Part shown: positions 3,655 through 35,960 of the stretch, in pieces
How positions within the stretch are numbered: position 1 is the stretch's first letter
Layout of the letters: every line of letters begins with the position of its first letter
Position numbers and translations under genes: made by a program
Notes under the pieces: generated by a model
What the model was told of the DNA's origin: nothing
What the model saw: only the letters and a program-made list of their open reading frames with translations
The model's database searches: none
Assembly (NCBI GenBank): GCA_965216025.1
Contig: CBDCEX010000015.1
Location: 7,063 to 71,062, forward strand
DNA: 64,000 nucleotides
Direction: 5' to 3'
DNA from: Dehalococcoidia bacterium
GTDB taxonomy: Bacteria; Chloroflexota; Dehalococcoidia; Lucifugimonadales; UBA3495

Positions 3655-4884
3655 ATGAGCAAGCTAACCAATGCAGCAATCAAGGGACTGGACAAGCCGG
3701 GGCGGTATGGGGACGGCGGCGGGCTATACTTGAACGTCGCGCCCGGAGGTTCAAAGTCTTGGATTCAACGAATCAGGATTGACGGCAACCGGACTGACAA
3801 GGGATTGGGCGGGTATCCCGCCATGACTCTTACCAAAGCACGGCAACAGGCAGACGCTAACCGCATAGTGGTTAAAGCGGGCCGCAATCCCTGGACTGAA
3901 AAGCGCATGGCCTCACCCGCGCTGGCTGCACCAGTGGCCGACATTCCGACACTACGGGAAGCCACATACACAGTCCACAACCTCAATGCACCTTCACGTC
4001 CGGCGAGTGCTGCCCGATGGATTGGGCAGCTGGAAAAGCACATCCTTGCCAGTGTTGGCGATACTCCCATTGACGAATTCACCCGCGCGAACTTGGCAGA
4101 GATCATCGGGCCGTTGCGCCAATCAAACCACGAAACATCGCGGAAGGTTAAGCAGGCGCTCCATGACGTTTTCCGCTGGAGCGTAGCAATGGGGCATATC
4201 GCAACTAACCCTGCTGATGATGCCTTGGAAATCCTGTTGCCCAAGGTCCGGAAGGAAGTGACTCACCATCTGGCTTTGCCCCATGGGGAAGTCCGGCGGG
4301 CAGTCCACATGGTCAAGTCCAGTGAGGCACGGCTGGCGACACGTCTACTGCTCCAGTTCATTATCCTAACGGCTGCCCGTGCTGGTGAGGCAAGGCTGTC
4401 AACGTGGGGTGAAATTGACCTGGACGGCGCAACGTGGACGGTCCCGGCTTCCCGAATGAAAAACAACCGCGAACACGTCGTACCTTTGTCGGCGCAAGCC
4501 GCCGGAATACTGAGGCGGGCCAAAGAACTTTACCGCGATCCCGACGAAGAATTTGAATGGACGGTAGATGTTCAACCGGACTGGTGGATATTCCCGAATC
4601 CCAACAACGGCAAGCCTATCTCCGATGCCCTGGCGCAACGGCTGGACAAAGACGGCATACCTTCCACAATGCACGGCTTCAGAACTTCGTTCAGGACGTG
4701 GGCGGCTGAGACCTATGGCGATGATTGGGATACGGCGGCTGAAATGTGCCTCTCTCACTACCCTACCGATGCGGTAGTCAAGGCATACCAGCGGAGCGGC
4801 TTGGTGGATAAGCGCCGGGGACTGTTGGCAGCGTGGGCAGACTACGTTGACCCTGTAGCTTCCGTTGAACCGCCGTTCTCATAG
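3655..4884 (+). CDS. int: tyrosine recombinase, P4-type integrase
   Basis: 409 aa. N-terminal GLYLNVAPGGSKSWIQRIRIDG (DUF4102-type arm-binding domain). C-terminal catalytic region ARAGEA..., HGFRTSFRTWAAE, LSHYPTDAVVKAYQR (catalytic Tyr). Confidence 0.9.
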   Translation: MSKLTNAAIKGLDKPGRYGDGGGLYLNVAPGGSKSWIQRIRIDGNRTDKGLGGYPAMTLTKARQQADANRIVVKAGRNPWTEKRMASPALAAPVADIPTLREATYTVHNLNAPSRPASAARWIGQLEKHILASVGDTPIDEFTRANLAEIIGPLRQSNHETSRKVKQALHDVFRWSVAMGHIATNPADDALEILLPKVRKEVTHHLALPHGEVRRAVHMVKSSEARLATRLLLQFIILTAARAGEARLSTWGEIDLDGATWTVPASRMKNNREHVVPLSAQAAGILRRAKELYRDPDEEFEWTVDVQPDWWIFPNPNNGKPISDALAQRLDKDGIPSTMHGFRTSFRTWAAETYGDDWDTAAEMCLSHYPTDAVVKAYQRSGLVDKRRGLLAAWADYVDPVASVEPPFS

Positions 4885-4893
4885 AATAGAGGA

Positions 4894-4917
4894 AGTCCAG
4901 TTTTCCTTTTCTGGACT
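4894..4917 (+). terminator. hairpin after int
   Basis: AGTCCAG-N10-CTGGACT located 10 nt after the int stop. Confidence 0.4.
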
Positions 4918-5004
4918 ACCTCCTCTAAGGCCCTACTGTGCCCGCAGTGGGGCCTTTACTGTTGCAACCTTATTGTAGCAAGCTAATTTATGGAGGGTTG
5001 AACA

Positions 5005-5226
5005 ATGGTAAGGCACACGGTAGCACTCCGCCCGGTGGCGTTTCAGAAGCTACAGAACTTGACCGAGGAGCTGAGCAGGTAAGCGGGCTGGAAACTGTCT
5101 ATGGCGCAGGTGGTGGAAATGGCGATTGATCAAGTCGAAAGGATAGAAGCCATGAAAGACGAAGACGACATAGTTGGCTACAGGGAGAAAGAAGAGCAGC
5201 AAAGGAAAAGCTATCAAGGGCACTAG
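5005..5226 (+). pseudogene. ribbon-helix-helix (CopG/Arc-like) protein with an in-frame TAA
   Basis: GGAGGG RBS 7 nt before ATG 5005. MVRHTVALRPVAFQKLQNLTEELSR, then TAA (5080-5082), then AGWKLSMAQVVEMAIDQVERIE..., all in one frame. Beta-strand/helix/helix pattern of RHH proteins. Confidence 0.45.
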
Positions 5227-5664
5227 AACAGAAAGCCGGGCGCACCAACGCCCGGCAATCTAAACCAATAAGGAGCATCATGGGTAGTATAACGCCGAAG
5301 TGCATCTATTGTCAATTGGTGCGGAAATCGTTTGGCGGCGATCCCTGCCAATGCCCCAAAGCCATCGCAGCGCTGGGTCCGGTGCTGCTCTGCGAAGAAT
5401 GTAACCAACCGACCTATATGGGAAACGGTAACCCCCGGACTGAAATCTACGGCGGCGGTCCAGCGTGGGAACATTGCAATTGTGCGGGAGCTAAAGCCAG
5501 GGTTGAGGCCAAGAACGCCGCACAAGCCAAGCAATGGGCAGAATTTGAGGCCAAGAAAAAGGAAGAATCTGACAAAGAGGATGCTGCACGGCGCGCAGAC
5601 TGGGCCAAGATGACGCGGCAGTTTGCCAAGGAACAGGCCATCGTCAATGATGATGCGGGCCTAG

Positions 5665-7116
5665 TACTACAACGACGAGTTGTCTGGTAGGATGGCTGGA
5701 CAGATGATGTTGGGTGGTTTGAGTGATGGATGCGGCGAGCTTCGAGCGGGTCTACGACAGCCTTCAGGAATTCCACGCCTTCTTTGCGGCCTCCTTCGGC
5801 CGCAAGCAGTGGCGGGATCACAGCGGGAATTACCTTCAGGCGCTGCTGGTGCAGGACCAGGAGCGGCGCAACGCCGAGAATCTCTCGGAATCGGTGGGCA
5901 TCTCGGCCCGGGCGATGCAGCGCTTTCTCACCGAGGCCCGGTGGTCCGATGAGACAGTCATAGGGCGGTTGCAGGAATACTTGGCCCCCAGGCTGGGACA
6001 CCCGGAGGCGGTGTGGGTGTTCGATGGCAGCGACTTCCCCAAGCAGGGCAGGAAATCGGCGGGAGTGGCCCGGCAGTACTGCGGCAGGCTGGGCAAGGTG
6101 GCCAACTGCCAGGGTGGGATGTTCCTGGCCTACGTCAGCCCGCTGGGCCGGGCGTTGGTGGACAAGCGGCTGTATCTGCCCAAGAGTTGGACCTCCGACC
6201 AGGACCGGTGTGCTGCGGCGGGTGTGCCGGAGGACCGGCGGAACTACCGGTCAAAGACGGAGTTGGCCCTGGAGATGCTGGAGCGGGTCCTGGAGTTGGG
6301 CTACCTCAGGGCCGAGTGGGTTGCCGGAGACGACGCCTTCGGGATGTCGCCGACCTTCCGGGAGGGACTGGCGGCCCTGGGGATGCGCTACGTGCTGGAC
6401 GTTCCGGGCGGCACTACGGTCTGGCCCTTGGACCCGGCTTGGACCAGTCCGGAATATCCGGGGTTCGGCCGCCCCCGCAAACCCAAGCTGCGGCCTGGGC
6501 AGCGGCGGACCATGGAGCAGCGCGGTGATGAACTGCCGGATGAGGCTTGGCGGGAGATAACGGTGGCCCAGGGAAGCCAGGGGCCGCGCACCTACCGGTT
6601 CAGTGCCCAGCGGGTGCGGGCCACCAGGAGGCGCAAGCCCGGCGAGGAACTGTGGGCCGTCTGGCGCCGGAACCTGGACGGCAGCGAGCCCCGCTACTAC
6701 CTGTCCAACGCTCCCGAGGGCACAACCTTGGAGACTCTGGCCTACGTGGGTGGGTCCAGGTGGCGCATTGAAACGGAGTTCGAGACTGAGAAGGGTGACG
6801 TGGGGCTGGACGAATACGAGACCCGCAGCTGGGCAGGGTGGCATCACCACATAGCCATGTGCCTGCTGGGTGGGGCGTTCCTGCTGAGCCTGCAGCAGGA
6901 TTGGGGGGAAAAAGATGCCCCGGATCACGAGGCCACAGGTGTACCGGGTGGTGCGGGAGATGCTGCCCCGGGAGCAGTTCGGGCCCGATCAATTGCTGTT
7001 GTGGCTGGAGGATACGCAGCTACGCAACGAACGGGCTCGCCGTTCCCACGAGAGACGCCGCTCCACCCGCCGCGAAAGCAGGATGGAGCCGCCACCTTAA
7101 ACCCGTCGTTGTAGTA
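5665..7116 (+). mobile_element. IS701-family insertion sequence
   Basis: Terminal inverted repeats (G)TACTACAACGACG at 5665 and 7104-7116. CTAG on both sides (5661-5664 and 7117-7120). Carries a DDE transposase. Confidence 0.85.
5723..7114 (+). CDS. IS701-family DDE transposase (C-terminal ~60 aa out of frame)
   Basis: RWRIETEFETEKGDVGLDEYETRSWAGWHHHIAM is typical of the IS701/IS4 superfamily. After the G6A5 run at ~6903-6913 the family-like tail KKMPRITRPQVYRVVREML..RNERARRSHERRR continues in the +1 frame (ORF 6915..7100). Confidence 0.8.
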   Translation: MMDAASFERVYDSLQEFHAFFAASFGRKQWRDHSGNYLQALLVQDQERRNAENLSESVGISARAMQRFLTEARWSDETVIGRLQEYLAPRLGHPEAVWVFDGSDFPKQGRKSAGVARQYCGRLGKVANCQGGMFLAYVSPLGRALVDKRLYLPKSWTSDQDRCAAAGVPEDRRNYRSKTELALEMLERVLELGYLRAEWVAGDDAFGMSPTFREGLAALGMRYVLDVPGGTTVWPLDPAWTSPEYPGFGRPRKPKLRPGQRRTMEQRGDELPDEAWREITVAQGSQGPRTYRFSAQRVRATRRRKPGEELWAVWRRNLDGSEPRYYLSNAPEGTTLETLAYVGGSRWRIETEFETEKGDVGLDEYETRSWAGWHHHIAMCLLGGAFLLSLQQDWGEKDAPDHEATGVPGGAGDAAPGAVRARSIAVVAGGYAATQRTGSPFPRETPLHPPRKQDGAATLNPSL

Positions 7117-11569: not shown

Positions 11570-12841
11570 ATGACACCATTGCAGCGTATTCGGATTGAAC
11601 AAAGCACACACCGCGAGAAGATCAATGCGTTGCTGGCGGTGGAAACTGAACTGGACGATACCCAGCGGGGCGAACTCGCCGGCCTCACCACCAGGATGCA
11701 GAACCTGGAGCTTGAGTACCGGGCCGCAGAGATGGCCGACGGCCCCATGGAAATTGCGGATGACGCGCCGGTGATCTCCAAGGACCAACGCCAGCGCCTT
11801 GAACTGCGGAGCGCCGCCCGGTTGACCAACTACCTGCTCTCCCATGCCCAGGGCAAGATGCCCAGCGGTGCGGAACTGGAATTGCAGCAGGAAGCGCACG
11901 TCAACGGAATTCCGGTGGAACTGTTCGACGTTGCAACCCGTGAAACCCGCGCCGACTCACTGGCGCCCACCACCGGCGTCGGCGTAAACGTGGACCCGGT
12001 TCGCCCGATGCTCTATGCCCGCGCCGTGCTGCCCCGGCTGGGGGTAGCGATGCCCAGGGTGGAGAACGGCAGTTACAGCACCATGACCGTCAGCACCGGC
12101 TTGACCGCTGCTGCCACCACCGCAGGGAGCGCATTCACTGCTACGGCGGCGGTGCTGACTCCGCAGACCACCCGCAACCACCGCGTAACGGGCCGGCTGT
12201 CTCTGAGGGTTGAAGACATTCAACACATCGGCGTCGACAACTTCGAAAGCATCCTTCGCCAGAATTTGATGCTGGTGATGTCTGACCAATTGGACGCGCT
12301 GGGACTGACCGGCGACGGCACCGACCCCAACCCCGAAGGGCTGTATCCGCAGTTGACGGACCCGACCGATCCTTCGGACACCGTTACCTGGCCTCTGTTT
12401 GTTGCGGCGATGGCCGGCGGTATTGACGGTGGGCCATGGGCCGAAACCATGCGGGAGGTAACGCTCCTTGTGAACCCGGAAACCATGCGGCTGGCTGAAT
12501 CTACGTTCCAGGCTGGCACAGGGAATCAGGCCACCCCTGGCGACATCAGCGCCGCCGCCTACCTCCGGGCTAACAGCGCGGGATTCTTCAGCAGCCGCAG
12601 AATGCCAGACACCGACAGCAACATAGCGGGCTGCATCATCTACCGGGCTGGCACCATGGGCCTGGACGGGGTGGACGCAGTTCGGACCGCCGTATGCCCG
12701 ATGTGGAATGAAATCAGCATTGATGACATCTACTCCGATTCGGCCAGCGGCGTCCACCACTACACGATGCACTCATTGATTGGCTCTGTCTTGATCGAGC
12801 AACCCAACGCCTACAGCCGCGTTGACCTGAAGGTTAGCTAA
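11570..12841 (+). CDS. HK97-fold major capsid protein with N-terminal coiled-coil (delta/scaffold-like) region
   Basis: 423 aa. The N-terminal ~90 aa are charged and helical. The remainder resembles the phage major capsid family (PF05065-type). Located next to the prohead protease. Confidence 0.75.
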   Translation: MTPLQRIRIEQSTHREKINALLAVETELDDTQRGELAGLTTRMQNLELEYRAAEMADGPMEIADDAPVISKDQRQRLELRSAARLTNYLLSHAQGKMPSGAELELQQEAHVNGIPVELFDVATRETRADSLAPTTGVGVNVDPVRPMLYARAVLPRLGVAMPRVENGSYSTMTVSTGLTAAATTAGSAFTATAAVLTPQTTRNHRVTGRLSLRVEDIQHIGVDNFESILRQNLMLVMSDQLDALGLTGDGTDPNPEGLYPQLTDPTDPSDTVTWPLFVAAMAGGIDGGPWAETMREVTLLVNPETMRLAESTFQAGTGNQATPGDISAAAYLRANSAGFFSSRRMPDTDSNIAGCIIYRAGTMGLDGVDAVRTAVCPMWNEISIDDIYSDSASGVHHYTMHSLIGSVLIEQPNAYSRVDLKVS

Positions 12842-13135: not shown

Positions 13136-13700
13136 ATATCCTGTCTTTGAAGAGCAGCTTGAAATCCGGCAAGAAGGCGGCCGGCCGGTCCTGACCGCCA
13201 CCTTTCCGCTGAACCGGACCGCCACCACCAGCAACGTGGGGCGTGTTCGGAAAGAACGGTTTGCCAGCGGTTCCATGTCCTGGCAGACACGGGAATTTGC
13301 CAAGTTGCAGGACGAAATGGCGACCGTCCTATCTCGTGGCGTTGACGACTTCATGGCCCAACGGCGTGTCGCTGAACTTGACGAACAGTTGGAGCGGAGG
13401 AACACCCACCTGCTGGTAGGCCACTCATACGACCATGCCATTGCCGACACGAAGAGCGGCAACCTGGCGATACAGCACACCGATGAAGCTGTGTTCCTTC
13501 GGGCTGAACTGCCACCGGAGGGAGAGCAACCGAGTTGGGTTAAGGACGCAGTTCTAGCGGTGCGTGGGCGTCAACTTCGGGGTATCAGCCCTGGATTCCA
13601 AGTAACGCCGCAGGGCCGGCAGCGCCTGGTGCCGGAGGATGGGCCGGGTGATTCCCTCGTGCGGGAAATCCAAGATTCGACGGTGTACGAGTACTCCCTA
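13125..13700 (+). pseudogene. HK97-family prohead protease (S78/U35-like), 3' end cut off by IS630 copy A
   Basis: LLVGHSYDHAIA (His), RGISPGFQV (Ser), VYEYSL. The native sequence stops at the IS end at 13700/13701; the ORF tail NQSQGGNYIGQ is IS sequence. Confidence 0.7.
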
Positions 13701-14857
13701 AACCAAAGCCAAGGTGGGAACTACATTGGGCAGTGATGGCAAAGGCACGGCAGGTGTAAAGATCAAAGCATCGGCTCGGGCCTGTAACCGGGTTGGGCAG
13801 CGATGTTTCACTTCATCCTTACGATGAATTAGCCCGCCGAAGAATTGATTCATCTTCTCTTGGACTTTGGCTTTTGTTCCCAGGCATTCGTTGGCCGTGA
13901 CCTCTTCTCTGGCCCAGTCCCAGACGGCTTCGTCGGCGTTGAAGTCTGGGCTGTAGGCCGGTAAGGCCACCAACCTCAGATGCAAGTCAGGAGTGGTCAA
14001 ATAGCTGCGAATCGCTGCTCCTCGGTGGGCTGGCCCATTGTCCCAGATTACTACCAGAGGTCCAGGATGGTTTGCTCTTAGCTGCTGTAAAAAGGCGGTG
14101 GAGGTCTCGGCATTGCTGTTTCCAGCTATTTCCATGGCTTCCACCTCCCCAGTCTCCAGACAAACTCCCGAGTAGTAGCAGGCCTTCTCTCCCCACCGAG
14201 GACTGGTGGAGTCCACCAGCGCTGCCTCTCCCTTGAGTACCCATTTGCCTCGCAGGTCGGCATCGGCCCGAAAGTGGGCTTCATCCACGAAGAAGATCTT
14301 GGCTCCATTCTCTTGGGCCTCCTCTCGGATTTGGCTGTACTGGAGGACGAAGGCTTTCCGTTCTTCATCCTTGGCTTTCAGGAGGCGTTTCTTGGGTCGC
14401 TTCAGCACGAAGCCCAACCGATGGAGGTAGTTCAAGCAACTGCTCCGACTCAGCCCCAGGTCAAAGCTCTGCTTGAGAAATTGCCTTACTACTTTCCAGT
14501 TCCAGTTGGACAATTCAATCCCCGCCTCCCCAGGCGGATTTTGCATCGCAGACTTCAGTTGGTTCTGTTGACCTCGGTTCAAGACGGGGGGGAACCCCCA
14601 GTCTGCTCAAAGACCAAACCTTGGGCCCCGCCTTGGCGAAAGTTGTCCTGCCAGTTTCCGATGGTATGAGGCTCTCTCTCCAAAGCCTCAGCCACTTGAG
14701 TGGCCGACCACCCTTGGGCCAACAACCATAGCCCATGCCATCGCTCTCGCTCCCGAGGTGTTGGCGCCCGATACATCCTTTCCCGTAAGTCGCCTACATC
14801 CAGTTGCCACCGTTCTAGGAGTTGCACTATGTCTGTCATCCCTTCCCCCACCGCCAA
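13698..14857 (-). CDS. IS630-family transposase (orfA 14579..14857 HTH, orfB 13698..14582 DDE; +1 shift needed at a C7 run)
   Basis: orfA ends ..FEQTGGSPPS-stop. orfB begins LNRGQQNQLK.. in the +1 frame; one extra C would give a typical IS630 GG-PP-L junction. The stop TAG is made from the TA duplication plus a flanking G. Confidence 0.85.
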
Positions 14858-14929
14858 TCGACTTCTTTTACAGAATATCGCAACTCCTCTTCGGGTTCGC
14901 TTTATGTAGGTTTCACCTTAGATTTGGTT
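13701..14929 (-). mobile_element. IS630-family IS, type 1, copy A (1229 bp)
   Basis: Ends AACCAAAGCCAAGGTGGGAACTACAT / ATGTAGGTTTCACCTTAGATTTGGTT. TA on both sides within C-TA..TA-G. The flanks are unrelated genes (phage protease | dppC-like permease). Confidence 0.9.
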
Positions 14930-14931
14930 TA

Positions 14932-15359
14932 GTCTGGTCAACGTCATGATTGCGGTGTCGGTAGTTTGGTGGACCGGGCACGCTCGGGTGATTCGGGGCA
15001 TGGTGCTATCGGCGCGACAACGAGAGTATGTGGTAGCCGCCCGGGCCATCGGTGCCAGCGACCTCAGGATCGTGGGATATCACATTGCTCGCAATATCCT
15101 GGGTCCCTTCGTGGTGCTGGCCAGCCTGGATATGGGGTGGATTCTTCTAGGCATAGCCGGTCTGAACTTCCTGGGTTTGGGTGCCCAGCCACCGACACCA
15201 GAGTGGGGAGCAATACTTAACGACTCGCGGTCTTATTTGCAGACGGCGCCCCGGCTTTTGCTTTTCCCAGGCACTGCTATCTTCCTTTTGGTACTGGGAT
15301 TTAACCTTTTAGGGGATGGCCTGAGAGATGTACTGGATCCTACTACTTACCGGCGCTGA
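14932..15359 (+). pseudogene. oligopeptide/dipeptide ABC transporter permease (DppC/OppC-like), C-terminal fragment
   Basis: ..VVWWTGHARVIRGMVLSARQREYVVAARAIGASDLRIV..LGLGAQPPTPEWG.. is the C-terminal half of a binding-protein-dependent permease. The frame is open right up to the IS end at 14931; the N-terminal half is missing. Confidence 0.75.
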
Positions 15360-18328: not shown

Positions 18329-18775
18329 ATGAGCACTGTTTCCAAGCCATCTGTACTGGCGCTCATTATCTCCGTCCTCGCACTGTTTACCGCCGCTTGC
18401 GGACCTGCAACCTCACCCCAGTCCACGATCGCGCCCGTCACACCCGCCGCTACGCTGGCACCAACGCCTCCTCCACCCGCAGTGTCTACACCCGCACCCG
18501 TGTCTCCATCCCTCACTGCGTCCACACCCGTACCCGTGCCTCCGCCCACCACTACGTCTACACCCGCGCCCAGCGACTTCATCCTGGTGGGCGGCACAGT
18601 CGACTTCGAGGCCGACACGGCGACGATTCATCCAATCATGGAGTTGAGGGGCGCTTTCCCGGCGCCCGCCCCAGGCGAATACCGATTTCAGCTGCTCGAC
18701 GGCAAAGGGTTGGAGTTGTTCGGCGCCGACTTCGCTCCGTCCGTCATGGTCGCCGACCCGGAGCAGCCGAGGAAA
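18329..18775 (+). pseudogene. putative lipoprotein with Pro/Thr-rich linker, probably 3'-truncated
   Basis: Signal peptide plus lipobox LALFTAAC, then a PT-rich linker. Sense is lost near 18770, where it collides with a truncated convergent AKR gene. Confidence 0.45.
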
Positions 18776-19425: not shown

Positions 19426-20390
19426 GAACGGTGCGTTCCCAGGTTGTCCACCAATCGGGTAGGAGGGGGCCTCGCGGCCCCCGTCCTCCCACACCACCGG
19501 ACGTACTCAGCGTATCCGGCGGTTTCCTCTACTGTTTCAACAGGTGCTACCACCCGTCAAGGCTCGTTTCCGTTCAGACACCGTGGTCGCTGGCTGCTCC
19601 TCGCTCACCCCAGTTCCGGTTCCGCCTTCACCAGGGACGCCGGGGCGCACGGTCTCCTTCCTCCATTCAAGAAGGAAGAGTAGTTAGGCCGTGCCTTGCT
19701 GCCGCTCTACGCCCATCGAGTCCTCTTGACTGGCTCCTTGCAGTAGAGGATTCGGCCCTTCATCCTTCCCGTGCGGGAAGGACTACTATGGCCTCGGCTG
19801 ACTTCTCCGGAGCCTTCCCCCACCGTTGCTGGTGCGGTAGTCCCGATTCCATCGGGACAGCCCCAGAGATCTCCCAGGGTAAGCTATGCATCCTTCCCTC
19901 GGTCCCCGCCGGATTTACCAACGCACATGTCCGGATGACTACCGGGCCTCCCCGTCCATGGCCGGGTTACCCCACTGCGCCGGCCTTGTATCCGATTCCT
20001 GTTCGTCGGGTCCGAGTTTTGCCATCAGCTTCCTTCAGATTCCACCTCACGGTGGACACCCTTGCTTAGGCTAGCGGTTCCGGTCATCACGGCCCGCAGA
20101 GGACTTTCACCTCCAAGATGCACAACATGCCTGGCACACCAAAATGCCACCGCTGGTCTGCGCATCGCTGGCGATCACTGCCTCCAAATGCTGAAAGAAG
20201 TACGCCCCAGTACGGCATCGGTACGTCTGGGGCCCCATAGGGGCTCTACAATCTGACCCGCCATCACATCTCGACTGATGATGAAGGAGCGAGTACCATG
20301 CCGGATGTATTCAAACTCCCGTCGTTCTACCTTAAACCAGGATGTTTACGCTCCATGGCTTCGGTTTGCTTGGAGCGCTTCATGCCTAGG
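19426..20390 (-). mobile_element. fragment of IS630-family IS type 2, carrying a group II intron
   Basis: 19426-19453 and 20139-~20390 align with 55884-55912 and 55913-~56160 of the full copy. Both IS ends are missing and the coding sense is degraded. Confidence 0.6.
19454..20138 (-). mobile_element. ORF-less group II intron (685 nt)
   Basis: Reverse strand starts GUGUGCCAGGCAUG. Near the 3' end there is a domain V-like hairpin ACCGCCGGAUAC-GCUGA-GUA(CG)UCCGGUGGU with a 2-nt bulge. A domain VI hairpin GGGAGGACGGGGGCC-GCGA-GGCCCCCUCCU(A)CCC has a bulged A 7 nt from the 3' end (..GAU). The uninterrupted site GTTGTCCACCA|CAAAATGCC exists at 55912/55913. Domain IV is a short hairpin with no ORF. 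Confidence 0.65.
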
Positions 20391-20780
20391 CAAGATGTGG
20401 TTCATTGACCGTATGGTATGGGTTTATCAAGATATGGAGAAAGCAAGCCCGGAGTAAACAAAAGCTGGATATAATGAGGGGATGAGAGTTCCCCAGCTTT
20501 GAGCGGCTCACCCGGGTTGAATAGGGAGCGCGTCCTGTTTCTTCGGTATATCCGCCTTAGGGATCTCCGGAATGTGGGAATTCCATTACCGGGGTCGTGG
20601 ACACGGTGTTGGTTACTACTACCACTTCCCCTATCGGGTAGTATCGCCCGTGGGGATGGCGGATAACATCGATGACTTGTTGGGTCCAAACATTCTCCAA
20701 GAGAAGACAAAGGTAACGTAACATCGTATAAAATCCGCTTGAATTCTATTGAAGATAATCGAAGTTTCTAGGAGGAACCA

Positions 20781-21503
20781 ATGGCAGCATCCTGGGAAAC
20801 CATCAAAGTAGACGGATCAGACATGCGGATGTACCTGAGTGTCCCCGATGGTTCGGGGCCCTTTCCGGCAGTGTTGGTGAGCCAGCATGGACCGGGAGTT
20901 AACGAGTTTATCCAAGACATCGCTAACAACCTGGCCAAGGAAGGCTACGTCGCTTGTGCGCCGGAGTTGTACCATCGGGTCACCGAGGAAATGTTGGCCG
21001 ATGGGTCAGGCCCGGGCGACTACAACAACGACATTGATACCATTACCGACCTCAACGCCACCGTGGAGTACCTGAGAAGCCATCCCTCCGTCGACGGGGA
21101 ACGGCTGGGCATAACCGGGTTCTGCGCTGGTGGTCGAACAACCTGGTTAGGCGCCGCTACCAACTCCCATTTCAAGGCGGCGGTTCCATTTTTCGGCGGC
21201 AACATCATGGTGCCCAGGGGAAATACCGACCAAAGCCCCTTTGACCGGACCAGTGGGATGAAGTGCCCCGTTCTTTTCCACTTTGGTGGCATAGACACAA
21301 ATCCATCCCCGGAAGACCAAGCCAAGTACGACGCAGAGTTGACCCGCCTGGGCATACCCCACGAATTTTACAGCTACCCGGGGGCCGACCACGCCTTTAT
21401 GGACTACAACCGCGATCGGTATCAAAAAGAGGCCTCTGATGTTGCCTGGCCCAGGACCTTGGAGTTCTTCACTGCTCATCTCAAGGGAGTAGCGGTAAGA
21501 TAG
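20781..21503 (+). CDS. dienelactone hydrolase family protein
   Basis: 240 aa. GITGFCAGGR (Cys nucleophile elbow) and YPGADHAF. AGGAGG RBS upstream. Confidence 0.85.
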   Translation: MAASWETIKVDGSDMRMYLSVPDGSGPFPAVLVSQHGPGVNEFIQDIANNLAKEGYVACAPELYHRVTEEMLADGSGPGDYNNDIDTITDLNATVEYLRSHPSVDGERLGITGFCAGGRTTWLGAATNSHFKAAVPFFGGNIMVPRGNTDQSPFDRTSGMKCPVLFHFGGIDTNPSPEDQAKYDAELTRLGIPHEFYSYPGADHAFMDYNRDRYQKEASDVAWPRTLEFFTAHLKGVAVR

Positions 21504-25366: not shown

Positions 25367-26383
25367 ATGCCATTTGGAGGTAATGACTGGCTCGCTCTGA
25401 CACAGGAGCCAACGTTGGAACCTGCGCTGCCCATCTGTGACCCCCATCACCACTTTTGGGATTTTAGACCCGTGCGGCTTCCCTACCAGCGTTATCTTCT
25501 CCACGAGTTGGCCGCCGATATCTACAGCGGTCACAACGTACGATCAACGGTTTTCATTGAAACCAGCTCCATGTACCGTCCTGATGGACCGGAGGAGTTG
25601 CGTCCTGTTGGAGAGATCGAATTCGTGCAAGGTTTGGCGGCGGCCAGTGCCAGCGGCCTCTACGGACCCGCCAAAGCGGCAGCAGCCATCGTGGGCAGGG
25701 CCAACCTCAACTTGGGGGAAGAAGTGAAGCCAGCTTTGGAGGCGCTTCAGGCAGCCAGCCCCAATCGGTTTCGGGGCATCCGCCAATCCGCCGCCTGGGA
25801 CTCCGATCCCGAGGTAGAAGACCGGGCGCCTAAAGGCCAGCTCGCGGATTCCAATTTTCGGACCGGCGCCCAAACGCTAGCGCAAATGGGCCTGTCGTTG
25901 GATATTACACTCTACTTTCCTCAGTTGCCCGAACTAGCGGACTTCGCCAACGCCGTCCCTGAGCTAACAATCGTTCTGAACCACATAGGTGGTCTGCTGC
26001 GGACAGGTCCCTACGGCGACCGAGATGATGATGTACTGCCCGTCTGGAAAAGCGGTATTGCCGCCGTGGCCAAATGCCCCAACGTCAACGTCAAGTTGGG
26101 TGGTGTAGGACAACCCCGTTACGGGTTCGACTGGTACGCCCGAACGGAACCCGTTGGCTCTGAAGAACTGGCTGGGGCTTTAGACCCCTTCTTGAACTAC
26201 TGCGTTGAGCGGTTTGGACCTGACCGCTGCATGTTTGAGAGCAACTTCCCTCCGGACAAGTTCTCTTATTCCTACAACGTTCTATTTAACGCATTCAAAC
26301 GGCTCTCCAGGGGCTACTCGACCGCCGAACGAGCCTCCTTGTTTCATGATACTGCCACAAGGGTTTACCGGATTGACGTTTAG
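25367..26383 (+). CDS. amidohydrolase-2 family metal-dependent hydrolase
   Basis: AAAGGAGG RBS before ATG 25367. CDPHHHFWD metal-binding motif and a TIM-barrel hydrolase pattern. The stop TAG (26381-26383) overlaps the first base of the IS5-family element. Confidence 0.8.
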   Translation: MPFGGNDWLALTQEPTLEPALPICDPHHHFWDFRPVRLPYQRYLLHELAADIYSGHNVRSTVFIETSSMYRPDGPEELRPVGEIEFVQGLAAASASGLYGPAKAAAAIVGRANLNLGEEVKPALEALQAASPNRFRGIRQSAAWDSDPEVEDRAPKGQLADSNFRTGAQTLAQMGLSLDITLYFPQLPELADFANAVPELTIVLNHIGGLLRTGPYGDRDDDVLPVWKSGIAAVAKCPNVNVKLGGVGQPRYGFDWYARTEPVGSEELAGALDPFLNYCVERFGPDRCMFESNFPPDKFSYSYNVLFNAFKRLSRGYSTAERASLFHDTATRVYRIDV

Positions 26384-27303
26384 TAACTATCTCAAAACCT
26401 TGAATTGAATTTGAAACTTATATTATACTTCCACCAAAAGTGTGGAGGTGAAAGCAGTGAAACCAATGAGGCAAGTTGAACCGCTGGAGACTATTTGGGA
26501 GATTCCGGACGATTTGTGGGAGAAAGTTGAGCCAGTGATCCTGGAGGGAATCCCTCCCAAAACCACCGGTCGCAAGCGGGTCAACCCAAGGCCAATCCTT
26601 AACGGAATTATCTTTCGCTTACGTAGTGGTTGCCAATGGAACCATCTGCCCAAGACTTTTGGTGACGATAGTACTATCCATCGTACTTTTCAGCTATGGG
26701 TAGAATCGGGAGTGTTGAACCAAGTGTGGTCGGTCATGGTAGAGGAATGTGAAGAGCTGGGAGGTGTGGACTGGGAATGGCAAGCAGCGGATTGCGCCCT
26801 GGGTAAAGCTCGCCTGGGGGGGACGCAATTGGCCCCAATCCCACGGACCGTGGCAAGGCGGGCAGCAAGCGAAGCCTGTTGGTAGAGGGGGACGAGGGCC
26901 TCTGAGTCTAGTGGTAGCTGGAGCCAATGTCCACGACACCAAGCTGCTGGAAGCCACCCTGGAAGCCATTGTGGTGGAGCGGCCTCAGCCCACTGACCAG
27001 GCACCCCAGCACCTATGTCTGGACAAAGGGTATGACAATCCCACCGGCCACCAAGCTGCCGCTGCCCACGGGTATCAGCCCACATACGACGTATTGGTGA
27101 GGAGAAGCTGGATAGCTTCGGCGAGAAGACCCATCCGGCCCGACGTTGGGTGGTGGAACGAACCCTGTCGTGGCTGTCCAAGTGCAGAGGATTACTTGTC
27201 CGTTACGACAAAAAGGCATCCAATTTCCTGGGTCTTTTGCAACTGGCCTGCGGGCTACTGTGGTACCCGCGAGTTTGGCGCCTTACTGTTTTGAGATAGT
27301 TAC
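26383..27303 (+). mobile_element. IS5-family (IS427/IS1031-like) insertion sequence, 921 bp, degenerate
   Basis: Inverted repeats GTAACTATCTCAAAAC at both ends. 3-bp TTA direct repeats at 26380-26382 and 27304-27306. Confidence 0.8.
26442..27296 (+). pseudogene. IS5-family transposase, at least three frame changes
   Basis: orfA ..ILNGIIFRLRSGCQWNHLPK.. (DUF4096-like), then DAIGPNPTDRGKAGSKRSLLV, GANVHDTKLLE..CLDKGYD, and IRRIGEEKLD..RRWVVERTLSWLSKCRGLLVRYDKK, each in a different frame. Confidence 0.75.
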
Positions 27304-27373
27304 TTAGTGGCCAGACCATTGGGGAGCTCGAGAGCATGAGGCAACGAAACGGGTCTAAGGAAGGAGGGCTCCC

Positions 27374-28187: not shown

Positions 28188-29437
28188 TCACGTAATCCCA
28201 TCCCGCCATGCAGCGCGGCCAAGGCCAGCACCTCCCTGCCAGAATGGGAGAGGCTGGTATTTGCATGGTGGACACTGCTGAACCAAAGCCAAGGTGGGAA
28301 CTACATTTTGGAGCGATGGCAAAGGCGTGGCAGTTTTCATCATCAGTGCGTCGGCTCGGGCTTGTAAAAGGGTTCGGCAGCGATGTTTCACTTCATCCTT
28401 ACGGTGAGCTAGCCCGCCGAAGAATACATACATCTTCTCTTGGACTTGGGCTTTTGTTCCCAGGCATTCGTTGGCCGTGACCTCTTCCCTGGCCCAGTCC
28501 CAGACGGCTTCGTCGGCATTGAAGTCTGGGCTGTAGGCCGGTAAGGCCACCAACCTCAGATGCAAGTCAGGAGTGGCCAGATGGCTGCGAATCGCTTCAC
28601 CTCGGTGGGCTGGCCCATTGTCCCAAATCACTACCAGAGGTCCAGGATGGTTTTCTCTTAGCTGCTGTAAAAAGGCGGTGGAGGTCTCGGCAGTGCTGTT
28701 TCCAGCTATCTCCATGGCTTCCACCTCCCCAGTCTCCAGACAAACTCCCGAGTAGTAGTTGGCCTTCTCTCCCCACCGGGGACTGGTGGAATCCACCAAA
28801 GCAGGCTGACCTCGCAACACCCATTTCCCCCTCAGGTCGGCATCGGCCCGAAAGTGGGCTTCGTCCACGAAGAAGATCTTGGCCCCACTCTCTTGGGCCT
28901 CCTCTCGGATTTGGCGGTACTGGAGGACGAAAGCTTTCCGCTCTTCATCCTTGGCTTTCAGGAGGCGTTTTTTGGGTCGCTTCAGCACGAAGCCCAACCG
29001 GTGGAGGTAGTTCAAGCAACTGCTCCGACTCAGCCCCAGATCAAAGCTCCTCTTGAGAAATTGCCTCACTACTTTCCAATTCCAGTTGGACAATTCAATT
29101 CCCGCCTCCCCAGGCGGATCTAGCACCGCAGACTTCAGTTGGTTCTGTTCACCCCGGCTCAAGACGGGGGGGAACCCCCAGTCTGTTCAAAGACCAAACC
29201 TTGGGCCCCGGCTCGGCGAAAGTTGGCCAGCCAGTTTCCAATGGTATGAGGTGCTCTCTCCAAAGCCTCAGCCACTTGGATCGCCGACCACCCTTGGGCC
29301 AACAACCATAGCCCATGCCAACGCTCCCGCTCACCAGGTGTTGGTGCTCCATACATGCTTTCCCGCAGGTTACCTACATCCAGTTGCCACCGTTCCAGGA
29401 GTTGCGCTATGTCTCTCATACCCTCCACCACCGCCAA
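28188..29437 (-). CDS. IS630-family transposase, copy B (orfA 29159..29437, orfB 28188..29162 with read-through tail)
   Basis: Same C7 run and +1 architecture as copy A. More diverged from copies A and C than they are from each other. Confidence 0.8.
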
Positions 29438-29509
29438 TCGATTTCTTTTACAGAATATCGCAACTCCTCTGCCGGTTCGTTTTATGTAGGTTTCACCTTA
29501 GCTTTGGTT
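28281..29509 (-). mobile_element. IS630-family IS, type 1, copy B (1229 bp)
   Basis: Same termini as copy A. The left flanking dinucleotide is TG instead of TA. Because the stop normally supplied by the TA duplication is lost, the transposase ORF reads 32 codons into the flank (ORF 28188..29162). Confidence 0.9.
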
Positions 29510-31131
29510 TAGTTAGACCCCCATCACGCCTGGGCACAACCTCTGCCTGGATTTCAGCGATATGCCCAGCACTTAAGCCGTTCTTGGACATCAACTCAAG
29601 AAGAACTAACCTGGCGACATGGTAGCCCCCACCCGCATTGTGCCTCTTGAAGATCAAGCCCATGATGCCGTATTCTTCGCCCAGTCCTCTCAGAAATTCA
29701 GTGCCCGGAGCACGAACACCCAGGCGGCTATGGAAGAAGCCCGGCTCCCCGTCAAAGATGTCTCTCGGAGCATCATAGCCGACTTTGGCCATCAGCGCCG
29801 CGGCCACTCCATTTCTGGCGCCTACTCCACCACGCAAGAAAGACGCGGTCATGTGCGCCGTTTCTCCGGCATAGGCGGCAATGTTGCAAGGACATATGGG
29901 CTGCTACACCGAGGGCTACTTCCAGCCGGTCTGACGGTAGCCCCAAGGTGATTCCGGCCGCGACAGTTGCTCCCATTGTGTTGCCCGCATCCACCGGGCC
30001 AAAATCCTTTCCAGTTTCACTTTCCTCTTGAGCGGCCACCCTTACCAATCTCTTCGACAATTCATATCCCAGAACAACACCTCGTAGTACCTCTGGCCCC
30101 GAGGCTCCTACTAGCTGGCCTGTTGCCAGAGCCCCGGCCATAACTGCGGCCAAAATATGAGTTCCGCGACCATCGCCGTCATGGGCATCCATCTCATCAC
30201 CGTGGCCCAGGGTGCCGTTGACCTGGGCGGCATTTAACGCCGAGGTACACATCGGGAAGCCCATCATGGTACAGTCCGGATATCCTCCGACCAGGTTAGC
30301 AAAATCTACCATTCGGTGGGCTGAAGGTAGCATAGAGCAAGCCAAATTGCAGCCAATGCCCTCGTACAGGGCCAACAAAGTCATCTGCTTGACATCAGAG
30401 GGGATGTCCTCGAATCTGGTGGCGTACATCCAGTTGAGATAGCTCTTCGTGGCGCTAAGCTCTGCCATCGCGTTTCCTCCGAACGAAGGTGGTTGTGGCT
30501 ACCGCAACCACATAAATGGCAATACGGTTAGTGGCGCCGGATTGGCATAAGGATATTGGATTGAAGTACCGCCTACAAGATCAACAGTAACACCGTCCAG
30601 AGCATCAGAATCGACAGGTCGATCTCAATGCCAACCGCGATAACAACAAGGGGAGCAACTTACTCAATGGCACGAATGACACACGGCGCATGCACGAAAG
30701 TGGCACTGAAATAGCATTGGGTACGCATATGTTCCTGGGCCCAAGTTTTGGTCCTTACTGATACAAAATAGCGTTTAGCATTTTTCTTGATGCAGATTTG
30801 GCCGAGAGCTTTTTCCGCCGGGCAGGTCAAGATTGGCAAAAATTGAGGTGTAGAAAGGGTAGCAAAAACAGTGGCGGTGTGATATACTTTTTCAAGTCCT
30901 CACGAAAAGAGGGCTTTTTTATTGCCCAAAAACAGTTCCCTGACTTGGCCCCTTCGTTCTCCTGCACCCCCGCTGCGATGAACCGGACTGTCCGGATGGG
31001 CGTCTCCTCAATGGCTGTGGCTTTCTTTATATTCCCAGACCTCGGCAAGGAGAGATTTTAGCCGGGAAGCCCATTTGTGGTTGCCTCCCCGATCTCTGTT
31101 GTTAGATGAAAAGGCTTCTATGTCCTAGCTA

Positions 31132-31973: not shown

Positions 31974-32311
31974 ATTGCAGTAATTCTCCGGCTAGAATAT
32001 CCCTGCTAGGATGCTGAGGAGTTAAAAAATGACTACCGTAAAAGCCCAGGAAAAGTTCGTCACGGTAAACGGTGTCCAATTGCGCTACCTGGACTGGGGC
32101 ACGGCTGGAAAAACCCCATTGGTATGCCTGCACGGCCACACGGGCCAAGCCCACATCTGGGACGAGTTCGCGGAAGCGACGGCCCCCCACTACCACGTGC
32201 TGGCCGTGGACCAGCGGGGGCACGGCGGCAGCCAATGGGCCGACACCGGATACGCCCGAGACCGGTTCGTGGAAGACCTGGCGGGCTTTGTGGACTCTTT
32301 GGGCCTATCTA

Positions 32312-33540
32312 AACCAAAGCTAAGGTGAAACCTACATAAAGCGAACCCGAAGAGGAGTTGCGATATTCTGTAAAAGAAGTCGATTGGCGGTGGGGGAAGG
32401 GATGACAGACATAGTGCAACTCCTAGAACGGTGGCAACTGGATGTAGGCGACTTACGGGAAAGGATGTATCGGGCGCCAACACCTCGGGAGCGAGAGCGA
32501 TGGCATGGGCTATGGTTGTTGGCCCAAGGGTGGTCGGCCACTCAAGTGGCTGAGGCTTTGGAGAGAGAGCCTCATACCATCGGAAACTGGCTGGACAACT
32601 TTCGCCAAGGCGGGGCCCAAGGTTTGGTCTTTGAGCAGACTGGGGGTTCCCCCCCGTCTTGAACCGAGGTCAACAGAACCAACTGAAGTCTGCGGTGCAA
32701 AATCCGCCTGGGGAGGCGGGGATTGAATTGTCCAACTGGAACTGGAAAGTAGTAAGGCAATTTCTCAAGCAGAGCTTTGACCTGGGACTGAGTCGGAGCA
32801 GTTGCTTGAACTACCTCCATCGGTTGGGCTTCGTGCTGAAGCGACCCAAGAAACGCCTCCTGAAAGCCAAGGATGAAGAACGGAAAGCCTTCGTCCTCCA
32901 GTACAGCCAAATCCGAGAGGAGGCCCAAGAGAGTGGAGCCAAGATCTTCTTCGTGGATGAAGCCCACTTTCGGGCCGATGCCGACCTGCGAGGCAAATGG
33001 GTACTCAAGGGAGAGGCAGCGCTGGTGGACTCCACCAGTCCCCGGTGGGGAGAGAAGGCCTGCTACTACTCGGGAGTTTGTCTGGAGACTGGGGAGGTGG
33101 AAGCCATGGAAATAGCTGGAAACAGCAATGCCGAGACCTCCACCGCCTTTTTACAGCAGCTAAGAGCAAACCATCCTGGACCTCTGGTAGTAATCTGGGA
33201 CAATGGACCAGCCCACCGAGGAGCAGCGATTCGCAGCTATTTGACCACTCCGAACTTGCATCTGCGGTTGGTGGCCTTACCGGCCTACAGCCCAGACTTC
33301 AATGCCGACGAAGCCGTCTGGGACTGGGCCAGGGAAGAGGTCACGGCCAACGAATGCCACGGAACAAAAGCCAAAGTCCAAGAGAAGATGAATCAATTCT
33401 TCGGCGGGCTAGCTCACCGTAAGGAAGAAGTGAAACGTCGCTGCCCAACCCGGTTACAGGCCCGAGCCGATGCTTTGATCTTTACACCTGCCGTGCCTTT
33501 GCCATCACTGCCCAATGTAGTTCCCACCTTGGCTTTGGTT
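32312..33540 (+). mobile_element. IS630-family IS, type 1, copy C (1229 bp)
   Basis: TA at 32310-32311 and 33541-33542 within C-TA..TA-G. The flanks are contiguous halves of one gene. Confidence 0.9.
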
Positions 33541-33543
33541 TAG
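32384..33543 (+). CDS. IS630-family transposase, copy C (orfA 32384..32662, orfB 32659..33543)
   Basis: orfB differs from copy A at 7 of 294 residues (hand count). Same C7 run. Confidence 0.85.
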
Positions 33544-33721
33544 GTTCGTGTTGGCCGGACTGTCCATGGGAGGCTGGCACTCCTTGCTCTACACCCCGGA
33601 CCACCAAGACCGGGTGGAGCGCATCATTATCGTGGACAACCAAGGATGAACAAGACAAGATCCTTTTCGGCACAATGATTTTGGAAATACCGGTTAAGGC
33701 AAAAATATAGGAGAAGGAAAC

Positions 33722-34687: not shown

Positions 34688-35960
34688 ATTAAGCAATATA
34701 AAGTAAGGTTGTCGGCATGGAAAATATTGATGCTGTCCGACAACGTTTTACCCTGCTTGAGGGCGTCTTGGACCAGCGGACCCGGCGGCTGGTCGCCGCA
34801 GCCGAAGCGCTGACGCTGGGCTGGGGTGGCGTTACCTGGGTCGCTCGAGCGACCGGCTTCTCGCGGCGGACCATCCAGCAGGGCATGCAAGAACTGCAGC
34901 AGCCCGAGCGGGTCAGCGCGGGCAGAGTCCGCAAGCCGGGCGGTGGGCGCAAGACCACTGTGAGCCAGGACCCAACGCTGCTGAGCGACCTGGAGCGCTT
35001 GGTTGAGCCGGTGACCCGTGGCGACCCGGAATCGCCCCTGCGCTGGACCTGCAAGAGCCTGCGGAACTTGGCGGCTGAACTCCAGCAGTTGGGGCACCGG
35101 GTCAGTCGCCGGTTGGTGGGGGATCTTTTGCACAGGTTGGAGTACAGCTTGCAGGCCAACAGCAAGACCTTGGAGGGTGGCGATCATCCTGACCGTGATG
35201 CCCAGTTCACCTACCTGAACCAGCAAGCGCAGACGTATCTGGATGCGGGTGAGCCGGTGATCTCGGTGGATGCCAAGAAGAAGGAACTGGTCGGGAATTT
35301 CAAGAACGGAGGGCGTGAGTTGCGGCCCCAAGGGGACCCGGAGCGGGTGCGGGTGTACGATTTCGTGATACCAGCCTTGGGGCGCGCCACACCGTACGGG
35401 ATCTATGATGTAGCGGAGAACACGGGCTGGGTGAATGTCGGGGTGGACCACGATACAGCGGCGTTTGCAGTGGAGAGTATCCGGCGCTGGTGGTGGGGGA
35501 TGGGGCAGGCACGGTATCCGAAGGCAACCCGGCTGCTGGTGAACGCCGATGGTGGGGGTAGTAACGGGAGTCGTGTGCGGCTGTGGAAGCGGGAACTGCA
35601 GCGGTTTGCGGACGAGACGGGGTTGACGATCACGGTGGGCCATTTGCCGCCGGGGACGAGCAAGTGGAACAAGATCGAACACCGGTTGTTTTCGTTCATC
35701 ACGCAGAACTGGCGGGGCCAGCCGTTGGTGAGTCATGAGGTCATTGTGAGCTTGATTGGCGGAACCCGGAATACCAAGGGGTTGCGGGTAGAGTGTCACC
35801 TGGACACGAACAAGTACCCGGCGGGTATCAAAGTGTCTGATAGCGAACTGGCCCAGGTGAACCTGCGGTGCCATGAGTTTCACGGGGAGTGGAACTATAC
35901 CATCCTGCCCAGCAACCGCTCAAGTTGAGATGGTTATTCGGTGACGAGCCCTTAGCTCAG
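34578..35960 (+). mobile_element. ISAzo13-family insertion sequence
   Basis: About 26-bp inverted repeats GCTAAGGGCT(T/C)GTCACC(A/G)AATAAC at ~34580 and ~35958. The exact ends are uncertain by a few bp. Confidence 0.7.
34717..35928 (+). CDS. ISAzo13-family DDE transposase
   Basis: 403 aa, apparently intact. ..PVISVDAKKKELVGNFKNGG.., ..LLVNADGGGSNGSR.., ..HLPPGTSKWNKIEHRLFS.. are typical of this family. Confidence 0.85.
   Translation: MENIDAVRQRFTLLEGVLDQRTRRLVAAAEALTLGWGGVTWVARATGFSRRTIQQGMQELQQPERVSAGRVRKPGGGRKTTVSQDPTLLSDLERLVEPVTRGDPESPLRWTCKSLRNLAAELQQLGHRVSRRLVGDLLHRLEYSLQANSKTLEGGDHPDRDAQFTYLNQQAQTYLDAGEPVISVDAKKKELVGNFKNGGRELRPQGDPERVRVYDFVIPALGRATPYGIYDVAENTGWVNVGVDHDTAAFAVESIRRWWWGMGQARYPKATRLLVNADGGGSNGSRVRLWKRELQRFADETGLTITVGHLPPGTSKWNKIEHRLFSFITQNWRGQPLVSHEVIVSLIGGTRNTKGLRVECHLDTNKYPAGIKVSDSELAQVNLRCHEFHGEWNYTILPSNRSS

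Follow-up and report, generated by a model that had tools for sequence, protein, structure and literature searches.

The window analysed here is a stretch of 64,000 nucleotides (64 kb) from a Dehalococcoidia bacterium, an uncultured member of the Chloroflexota (contig CBDCEX010000015.1). At position 19454–20139 its minus strand carries an insert of 686 nt, which interrupts a fragment of an IS630-type transposase gene (Pfam DDE_3) and which we recognize as a group II intron without an open reading frame (ORF), with the same orientation as the transposase relic. Deletion of exactly these nucleotides regenerates the 24-mer GGTTGTCCACCA/CAAAATGCCACC of a paralogous insertion sequence (IS) copy (here and below a slash within a sequence marks the point of insertion), whose empty site at 55919/55920 has the same UUUG/U motif and is unoccupied. 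An initial annotation made from the letters of the sequence had proposed an insert in an IS630-family transposase fragment with the empty site kept in the paralog, and the restored 24-mer bears this out; however, the insert is neither 685 nt long nor does it end at 20138, and the empty site does not lie at 55912/55913, as had been stated there.

Read on the minus strand the insert starts with GUGUG and ends with CCCGAU, in line with the ends named previously. At the junction 20140/19453 the exons read GGCAUUUUG on the 5′ side and UGGUGG on the 3′ side. Homology to the paralog, at ~85% identity, extends over ~215 nt of the 5′ exon (20140 to ~20355) and over only ~28 nt of the 3′ exon (19453–19426). 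The ORFs of the paralog carry DDE_3 (E 7.7e-17) and HTH_32/HTH_23 domains, and it is the DDE region to which the intron-flanking fragment is ~85% identical. The paralog itself is probably not intact, as its HTH ORF (56290–56754) and its DDE_3 ORF (55555–56037) are separated by ~250 nt without a continuous frame. The locus with intron and IS relic is found at 99.6–99.8% identity in six of six long-read assemblies spanning it, and two short-read contigs are broken off within the intron, which is expected of a repeat.

Anatomy of the ribozyme

As the initial annotation had suggested, the sequence was scanned with the covariance models of Rfam. At the gathering thresholds the whole window yields two matches only, both inside the insert on the minus strand: RF02001 (group-II-D1D4-3; 138.6 bits, E 1.4e-28, full model 1–170) and RF01998 (group-II-D1D4-1; 64.1 bits, E 3.3e-9, full model 1–84). 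In a local scan RF00029, the model of domains V and VI, matches with 38.1 bits (E 8.8e-6), and this match ends on the final base of the intron. It is beyond reasonable doubt that the insert is a group II intron. Weak sub-threshold matches (Chloroflexi-1 and others) overlap domain VI and were rejected as chance matches, and a tRNA scan of the window found none.

Group II introns start with GUGYG and end with AY, and their domain V has an AGC or CGC triad with a G.U wobble and a 2-nt bulge. In their domain VI the bulged branch adenosine lies 7–8 nt from the 3′ splice site. The features of the locus, from the 5′ exon to the 3′ exon and followed by the paralog, are as follows (exon-binding sites are abbreviated EBS, intron-binding sites IBS, reverse transcriptase RT):

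20140–20355, minus strand: 5′ exon, the IS630-type transposase relic on its sense strand (~85% identity to the paralog; DDE_3 and HTH domains of the paralog)
20143–20140, minus strand: IBS1 = UUUG, the last 4 nt of the 5′ exon (pairing with EBS1)
19454–20139, minus strand: complete ORF-less class C (IIC) group II intron, 686 nt (restoration of the empty site; three Rfam group II models; a 100% identical copy, L128, with the same ends)
20135–20139, minus strand: 5′ splice-site motif GUGUG (read from the sequence; relatives have GUGYG or GUUUG at the homologous position)
19883–20056, minus strand: domain I core with a GUGA tetraloop hairpin, the AAUCUGAAGGAAGC stretch and the subdomain carrying EBS1 (RF02001)
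19957–19960, minus strand: EBS1 5′-CAUG-3′, intron positions 180–183, in the loop GC(CAUG)GA (covariation with the end of the 5′ exon)
19915, minus strand: candidate EBS3 = A225, the middle A of a conserved GUAAAU, pairing with the first 3′-exon base U (comparison of 25 introns, tentative)
19755–19840, minus strand: distal domain II, J2/3 linker (AGAAGUCAGC) and domain III (RF01998)
19524–19751, minus strand: domain IV with the basal stem CCUCUACUG/CAGUAGAGG (the slash here separates the two strands), which holds the RT-gene remnant (minimum-free-energy fold; alignments with ORF-less and full-length relatives)
19537–19716, minus strand: remnant of the RT reading frame, ATG at 19716 (intron position 424), 59 codons and a stop (alignment to the RTs of relatives)
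19493–19523, minus strand: domain V, 31 nt (RF00029 alignment, fold, identical helix arms in at least 111 loci)
19457–19490, minus strand: domain VI with a 3-bp basal helix (GGG/CCC), branch A and GNRA loop (covariation in 34 distinct sequences of the family)
19426–19453, minus strand: 3′ exon, the last ~28 nt with IS homology, of which the first base U (19453) is the candidate IBS3 (comparison with the paralog and with L128)
55480–56760 (outer limits approximate), minus strand: paralogous IS630-type copy with the unoccupied site 55919/55920 (sequence comparison, domain search)

The fold shows domain V with a 9-bp lower helix, a 2-nt 3′ bulge (AC), a 2-bp upper helix and a GCUGA pentaloop, and the bulged branch A of domain VI is found at 19460, 7 nt from the 3′ end. 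Both hairpins had been described in this form previously, and the domain I stretch then called typical (GUGAGGUGGAAUCUGAAGGAAGC) is present as well. The triad, on the contrary, had been read as CCG, and the ribozyme had been held to be possibly degenerate or atypical. In the RF00029 alignment the consensus G-AGC-CGUAU is aligned to C-CGC-CGGAU, giving a CGC triad (19521–19519) with the G.U wobble kept; CCG is a slip of the register by one base. CGC is a recognised alternative to AGC (PMC4424553).

In order to place this domain V in its family, one genome per species was scanned with the pattern GCCGGATACNNNNNGTACGTCCGGT. At least 111 loci were found in Planctomycetota, Chloroflexota, Gemmatimonadota, Proteobacteria and Acidobacteriota, with Singulisphaera acidiphila represented by its complete genome. 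Of the 111 loci listed, 99 have a loop of the form G-N-U-G-A (GAUGA, GCUGA, GGUGA or GUUGA), and a recognisable domain VI follows in all but two or three of the 111. As domain VI is not constrained by the search pattern, it provides an independent test: in 34 distinct sequences 98.3% of the cells are paired, compared with 49–65% when the 3′ partners are shifted, compensatory changes are seen at 8 of the 14 pairs, and both the bulged A and the GNRA loop are present in 31 of the 34. The relatives with a mappable 5′ end fall into two size groups. About 20 of them measure 1.9–2.0 kb and contain an RT reading frame, which is intact in most (YADD present), and eight measure 550–801 nt and have no ORF.

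These data leave hardly any probability to a degenerate or atypical ribozyme with a non-AGC triad and a pentaloop. Although the RF00029 score of 38.1 stays below the gathering score of 40 and the upper helix of domain V has only 2 bp under a 5-nt loop, the CGC triad with its conserved wobble is a known alternative (PMC4424553), and the same helix arms occur in all of the above loci, most of the mapped copies having intact class C RT genes. The form of domain V is normal for its class C subgroup, neither degenerate nor atypical. For annotation the lesson is that the domain V of a class C intron may score just below the Rfam RF00029 threshold.

In the same survey the JAIEPT01 contigs (among L012–L111; L numbers denote loci) belong to one Gemmataceae metagenome-assembled genome (MAG), in which more than 25 contigs start or end 5–8 nt from this domain V. 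So many contig ends beside domain V indicate that a near-identical class C intron has multiplied to such an extent that the assembly was shattered.

Class C membership and choice of target

Class C introns insert directly downstream of the stem–loops of intrinsic terminators (or of attC sites). The insert belongs to this bacterial, terminator-targeting class. The window copy has no RT, and in this respect the class was judged from relatives: in L112, closely related and from an Anaerolineae MAG, the RT matches the GsI-IIC RT over its full length with 465 bits and the E. rectale IIC RT with 322 bits, compared to 143 bits for TeI4h (IIB) and 140 bits for LtrA (IIA), and it comprises RVT_1 and GIIM but no endonuclease domain. 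RmInt1-like class D introns home into an IS630-family element; an assignment of the insert to class D was rejected by the best match of the RT, the terminator targeting and the CGC triad. The class C target (PMC4424553; PMC4748821; PMC12584367), with a 5′ exon made up of a strong GC hairpin and a T-run and the intron beginning directly behind them, is seen in 26 of 27 mapped relatives. The window intron itself shows the CGC triad, a short domain V of 31 nt and a 3-bp base of domain VI, the latter being found in most IIC introns (PMC4748821).

EBS1 and the 5′-exon end covary, as is seen in ~30 relatives and in every sister copy. EBS1 CAUG faces IBS1 UUUG in the window and in the full-length L112. 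Its CA pairs with UG in these two as well as in L128 and in intron 1 of L133 and L134, loci described below; in L130 and in intron 2 of L133 and L134 the corresponding bases of EBS1 are AA and pair with UU. Further combinations of EBS1 and 5′ exon are CUCG with CGAG (L031), UGUG with CGCA (L036), and AUGA with UUAU (L090). Only 2–4 positions of EBS1 pair with IBS1; class C introns in general have a very short IBS1 of 3–4 nt and a single IBS3 base, and lack IBS2–EBS2. On the other side, the 3′ exon begins with T in 21 of 25 mapped introns. When A225 is compared with this base in the 25 introns, A-U is found 18 times, G-C twice and G.U three times, next to one A/C mismatch and one unalignable case; since only three alignable cases have a 3′ exon not starting with U, the designation of A225 as EBS3 is tentative.

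The strength of the upstream hairpin was judged by folding the 45 nt upstream of each site as DNA and comparing the fold with shuffled sequences. The z-score is −2.83 at the L128 site and −10.2 at the rplT site of L130, whereas it is −1.24 at the window site (25 of 200 shuffles fold as well) and +0.57 at the empty site of the paralog. A terminator target is present at L128, L130, L133, and L134. From the z-scores we regard the window insertion as ectopic, at a look-alike site which offers little beyond IBS1 and IBS3, and such a weak target fits the finding that the identical motif of the paralog was left unoccupied. In every trait that could be tested the element agrees with class C, except for the hairpin at the window site.

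Domain IV, sister copies and the source of the reverse transcriptase

Domain IV comprises ~228 nt (intron positions 389–616). The initial annotation had rightly stated that there is no intron-encoded protein, but the short hairpin it described is in fact this larger domain with a remnant of the RT gene. The remnant reads MGVERQQGTA-stop-LLF..VRPGVPGEGGTGTGVSEEQPATTVSERKRALT/GGSTC-stop (the slash marks the deletion junction; in full MGVERQQGTA-stop-LLFLLEWRKETVRPGVPGEGGTGTGVSEEQPATTVSERKRALTGGSTC-stop), with an in-frame TAA at codon 11 (19684–19686). Its first ~55 codons align with the N-termini of the RTs of relatives up to RKRAL; beyond this point the relatives continue with LMEE into RT0, whereas the window copy jumps to the last few codons (RKRALTGGSTC-stop). 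Thereby RT0 through the C-terminus is deleted. A search with 54 residues of the remnant against 5.8 billion protein clusters returned 23 clusters, all small and most exactly 59 aa long with the end RALTGGSTC, and the same junction is present in at least 20 clusters of 59 aa. Thus this specific deletion derivative is widespread. Other ORF deletions in the family have other junctions (L031, L039, L078, P0030), which shows that loss of the ORF was repeated.

The remnant as a maintained small protein of 59 codons was considered and rejected. Differences between the window and three sisters, sorted by codon position, amount to 4, 4, 6; 3, 10, 7; and 1, 5, 0, so that there is no third-position bias and the frame does not appear to be maintained as protein; moreover, the window copy has its stop at codon 11. 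Long blocks of the remnant are nevertheless invariant among the sisters and partly conserved in distant relatives (conserved blocks CGUGCGCCCCGGCGUCCCUGGUGAAGGCGGAACCGGAACUGGGG and ACGAGCCUUGAC). We suggest that it is kept as RNA and probably is part of a protein-binding platform to which an RT may bind, as RTs do in domain IV of other group II introns.

The RTs of L112, L019, L055, and L133 intron 2 share a conserved extension of ~55 residues upstream of RT0 (M..ERQQG...VRPG..GEGGT...RALT). The GsI-IIC RT has no such extension, and the match to it begins at residue 57 of the query. The conservation of the extension includes its nucleotide sequence, and the ORF-less derivatives have retained precisely this part. 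As a side effect on databases, antisense ORFs of 212, 93, and 90 aa are spuriously called on the intron (window 19431–20069, plus strand, and homologous positions in L120–L128), small sense ORFs of 59 or 37 aa are called on the RT remnant, and spurious calls of this kind become orphan families in protein databases.

With the exact sequence of the spurious antisense ORF of 93 aa a second copy was found. This copy, L128, is 686 nt long and 100% identical to that of the window, but lies on another contig in unrelated gene surroundings. Beyond the intron the identity continues for just the last 5 nt of the 5′ exon (TTTTG) and the first nucleotide of the 3′ exon (T), and the copy follows a canonical terminator, GCCCGGC-GAUAA-GCCGGGC-CUUUUCUUUUG. 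Identity at an unrelated canonical target indicates a very recent event. Further sisters are a 679-nt copy with 92% identity and EBS1 AAUG behind the infC-rpmI-rplT terminator (L130–L132, from three samples which also contain the window organism), a 5′-truncated copy with 95.5% identity (L129), and a copy with 92.8% identity and a different 3′ exon in a JGI (Joint Genome Institute) metagenome (L116). The search for more copies advised in the initial annotation has therefore yielded an identical copy and sisters of 92–99% identity. The copies in the window, in L128, L130–L132, and L116, and intron 1 of L133 and L134 lie at several sites, each matching its own EBS.

An assembly artefact at L128, with a chimeric long-read contig of low coverage from which no recent mobility could be deduced, is very unlikely. 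The contig is only 6.8 kb long and labelled with 2x coverage, but the stretch of identity is bounded precisely by the intron ends with the adjoining IBS1 and IBS3 bases, the flanking sequence represents a textbook terminator target, and the copies at other sites (L129–L134, L116) independently show mobility. Still less probable is that a full-length RT-encoding intron entered the window site, lost its ORF in place and never moved as an ORF-less element. Independent ORF deletions do occur in the family, with the differing junctions named above; the junction RKRALTGGSTC-stop, however, is common to the window, L128, L116, L129, L130–L132, and intron 1 of L133 and L134, as well as to ~20 protein clusters. 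Since the junction is shared with copies elsewhere, the deletion predates the insertion in the window.

Two truncated copies may be added here: L119 (669–749) keeps only domains V–VI and L129 (4688–5197) only the intron positions 178–686. Both are consistent with abortive reverse transcription or with a later deletion.

An RT needed in trans had been postulated from the sequence of this ORF-less intron nested in an IS relic, and no RT gene was found among the large ORFs of the 64-kb window. A search with a fragment comprising the N-terminal tag of the lineage and RT0 (P0022) gave 55 matches of 55–143 aa, and tag-bearing stubs of all kinds form at least 55 clusters. Two stubs on large contigs led to L133 (a 1.36-Mb contig of ERZ21829562) and L134 (a 90-kb contig of ERZ25074053), which are two different loci, as their terminator hairpins and 3′ exons differ. 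In both, a terminator is followed by an ORF-less copy 95–99% identical to that of the window (EBS1 CAUG), which is split by an IS, and then by a full-length intron beginning with UGUGCC. Because UGUGCC follows directly, the ORF-less copy lies within the resident intron, between its G1 and its U2; the G of the resident serves as the last base of IBS1 and its U2 as IBS3. The resident introns have EBS1 AAUG, matching exons that end with UU.

Both resident RT genes are split at the same CTAG (REEL/VASL), in L133 by an IS630-type element of 1228 bp, 98.4% identical to window 47231–48465, and in L134 by an IS5-type element of 925 bp, 99.2% identical to window 26382–27308. Without the IS, intron 2 of L133 measures 1907 nt and encodes an intact RT of 471 aa with YADD and the N-terminal tag of the lineage, 78.6% identical to the L112 RT, and the domain IV remnant of the window matches the N-terminus of this protein. 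A cognate RT-encoding intron thus very probably exists in the same organism as the window. The RT or maturase gene sought since the initial annotation is accordingly absent from the window itself, whereas cognate RT-encoding introns are present on contigs from the same samples, both in IS-split form. That two IS families occupy the same CTAG of the RT gene in separate full-length introns (L133 ~4304–5537, L134 ~4237–5165) may reflect a hot spot or a repeated selection for RT inactivation.

A probable non-autonomous, recently mobile intron and its possible way of life

Taken together, we suggest that the insert is likely a non-autonomous, RT-deleted class C group II intron with a complete ribozyme which has been mobile recently, and that the window copy is an ectopic insertion in a decayed IS630-type relic. 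According to this proposal the intron would be transcribed from outside and its splicing would be assisted by a class C RT/maturase of a related intron. The RNA–protein particle would then reverse-splice into single-stranded DNA, guided by an IBS1 of 2–4 nt (..UUG) and one IBS3 base (U), normally with a terminator hairpin upstream. Since class C RTs have no endonuclease, primers of the replication fork would be used to copy the intron into DNA. In the window the particle would have accepted the weak look-alike GGUGGCAUUUUG/U in the already decayed relic.

Several observations weigh against this proposal. The 5′ exon in the window has no significant hairpin (z = −1.24), and the identical motif of the paralog is unoccupied. 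The RF00029 score lies 1.9 bits under the gathering score. No RT gene is among the large ORFs of the 64-kb window, which code for transposases, an integrase and housekeeping proteins instead, and the only cognate RT genes found (L133, L134) are IS-split. Among the database matches to the remnant and to P0022 there was no intact RT with the N-terminal tag of the lineage, but only stubs of 37–143 aa. A search with a full-length sister RT reached at least 8000 clusters; of the 120 matches listed, none is tied to contigs of the window organism. Finally, the assignment of L128–L134 to the genome of the window is deduced from shared samples and from IS copies with 98–99% identity.

Some of these points would also fit a dead fossil, that is an ORF-less intron which was mobile once, no longer splices or moves and decays within a decaying IS relic. 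The intron lies in a pseudogene fragment within an IS-rich, rearranging region, the remnant frame is stopped at codon 11, an intact cognate RT was not found and both cognate RT genes seen are disrupted, and sister copies are themselves hit by IS elements or truncated at the 5′ end. We nevertheless consider the fossil unlikely, as all catalytic and recognition elements are intact and identical to those of RT-bearing relatives, no difference is seen over the 70 nt of domains V and VI in comparison with copies that diverge by 6–9% in domains I–III, and a 100% identical copy is present at an unrelated canonical target.

Beyond the proposal of a recently mobile, RT-deleted intron a wider reading may be offered, which as a whole we regard as rather doubtful. 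A widespread class C lineage might now persist essentially only as RT-less or RT-broken derivatives, comparable to a SINE-like (short interspersed nuclear element) parasite of class C introns. A single change of EBS1 from A to C might have retargeted one branch to ..UUG/U, a site created where a resident GUGUG... follows the T-run of a terminator. This branch would then home into introns able to supply its RT and disrupt their 5′ splice site, and the conserved 59-codon remnant in domain IV could be the RT-binding handle enabling the hijack.

Compared with the class C introns B.h.I1, O.i.I1 and GsI-IIC (PMC4424553; PMC4748821), the lineage is alike in the terminator targeting of the relatives, the very short IBS1 and the putative single IBS3 base, the RT of the relatives devoid of an endonuclease domain (the best match of solved structure being the GsI-IIC RT with 465 bits), the CGC triad, the shortened domain V, the 3-bp basal helix of domain VI and the full-length size of ~1.9 kb. 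The window copy differs in lacking the RT gene and in residing in a transposase relic without a significant hairpin, and its subfamily differs from GsI-IIC by the N-terminal extension of ~55 codons upstream of RT0. In the window the upper helix of domain V has 2 bp and a pentaloop, compared with 3 bp and a tetraloop in O.i.I1.

The ORF-less TeI3 introns of Thermosynechococcus elongatus go back to one ORF deletion, have kept ORF remnants and are mobilised by the RTs of TeI4 driver introns (PMC2882425). The lineage described here resembles them in the single internal deletion of the ORF, the remnants in domain IV with a disrupted frame, the presence of several copies at sites matching EBS and IBS, the nesting into related introns (twintrons) and, probably, the dependence on the RT of a related intron. 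TeI3 differs, however, in being IIB/chloroplast-like, with recognition by a long EBS1, EBS2 and EBS3 and with RTs containing an endonuclease, and in being confined to one cyanobacterial genome and experimentally tested, whereas the present lineage is of class C, spread over many metagenomes, accompanied by IS-disrupted cognate RT copies and known here from sequence. Homing into related introns is also described for Methanosarcina acetivorans (PMC4424553). The sister copies in L133 and L134 lie likewise inside a related resident intron, but their insertion point is G1/U2 of the resident and is created by the T-run of a terminator and the first G of the resident; the window copy, on the other hand, is nested in an IS relic and not in an intron.

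ORF-less bacterial introns, twintrons and terminator targeting are already known (PMC4424553). What the present element adds is modestly interesting: the abundance of a deletion derivative, the choice between ..UUU/ and ..UUG/ sites depending on EBS1, and the insertion into the 5′ end of relatives. A TeI3-like ORF-less way of life thereby becomes probable for a terminator-targeting class C intron, whose derivative is abundant in metagenomes. In addition, the copies provide a natural experiment on target rules, with the same element at a true terminator, at a look-alike without hairpin and at the 5′ end of relatives, and with the motif of the paralog unoccupied.

The surroundings of the intron are rich in other mobile DNA. 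An IS630-family element of ~1.23 kb (DDE_3 and HTH_33), distinct from the host IS of the intron, is present in four copies (13698–14933, 28278–29513, 32309–33547, and 47231–48465) which are 92–98% identical to the IS splitting the RT gene of L133. The IS5-type element at 26382–27308 shows DDE_Tnp_1/DUF4096 in the homologous locus. Moreover, the window contains an AAA_25/IstB-like ATPase (1554–2828), a phage-type integrase (3655–4884), a DDE_5 transposase (5723–7114), a weak capsid-like ORF (11570–12841) and an ISAZ013-type transposase (34717–35928). For ClpX and the GMC oxidoreductase no exact database match was obtained, which is probably due to different start codons or strains. Assemblies of the same organism (L120–L125) diverge upstream of window position 18760 (compared over ~18450–18770): L120 and L123 have an ISAZ013-type transposase in this region, and of the aldo/keto reductase gene, present in intact form (343 aa) in L121 and L124, the window has a truncated version with an ORF of 228 aa. 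L121 and L122 also differ near 20386–20990.

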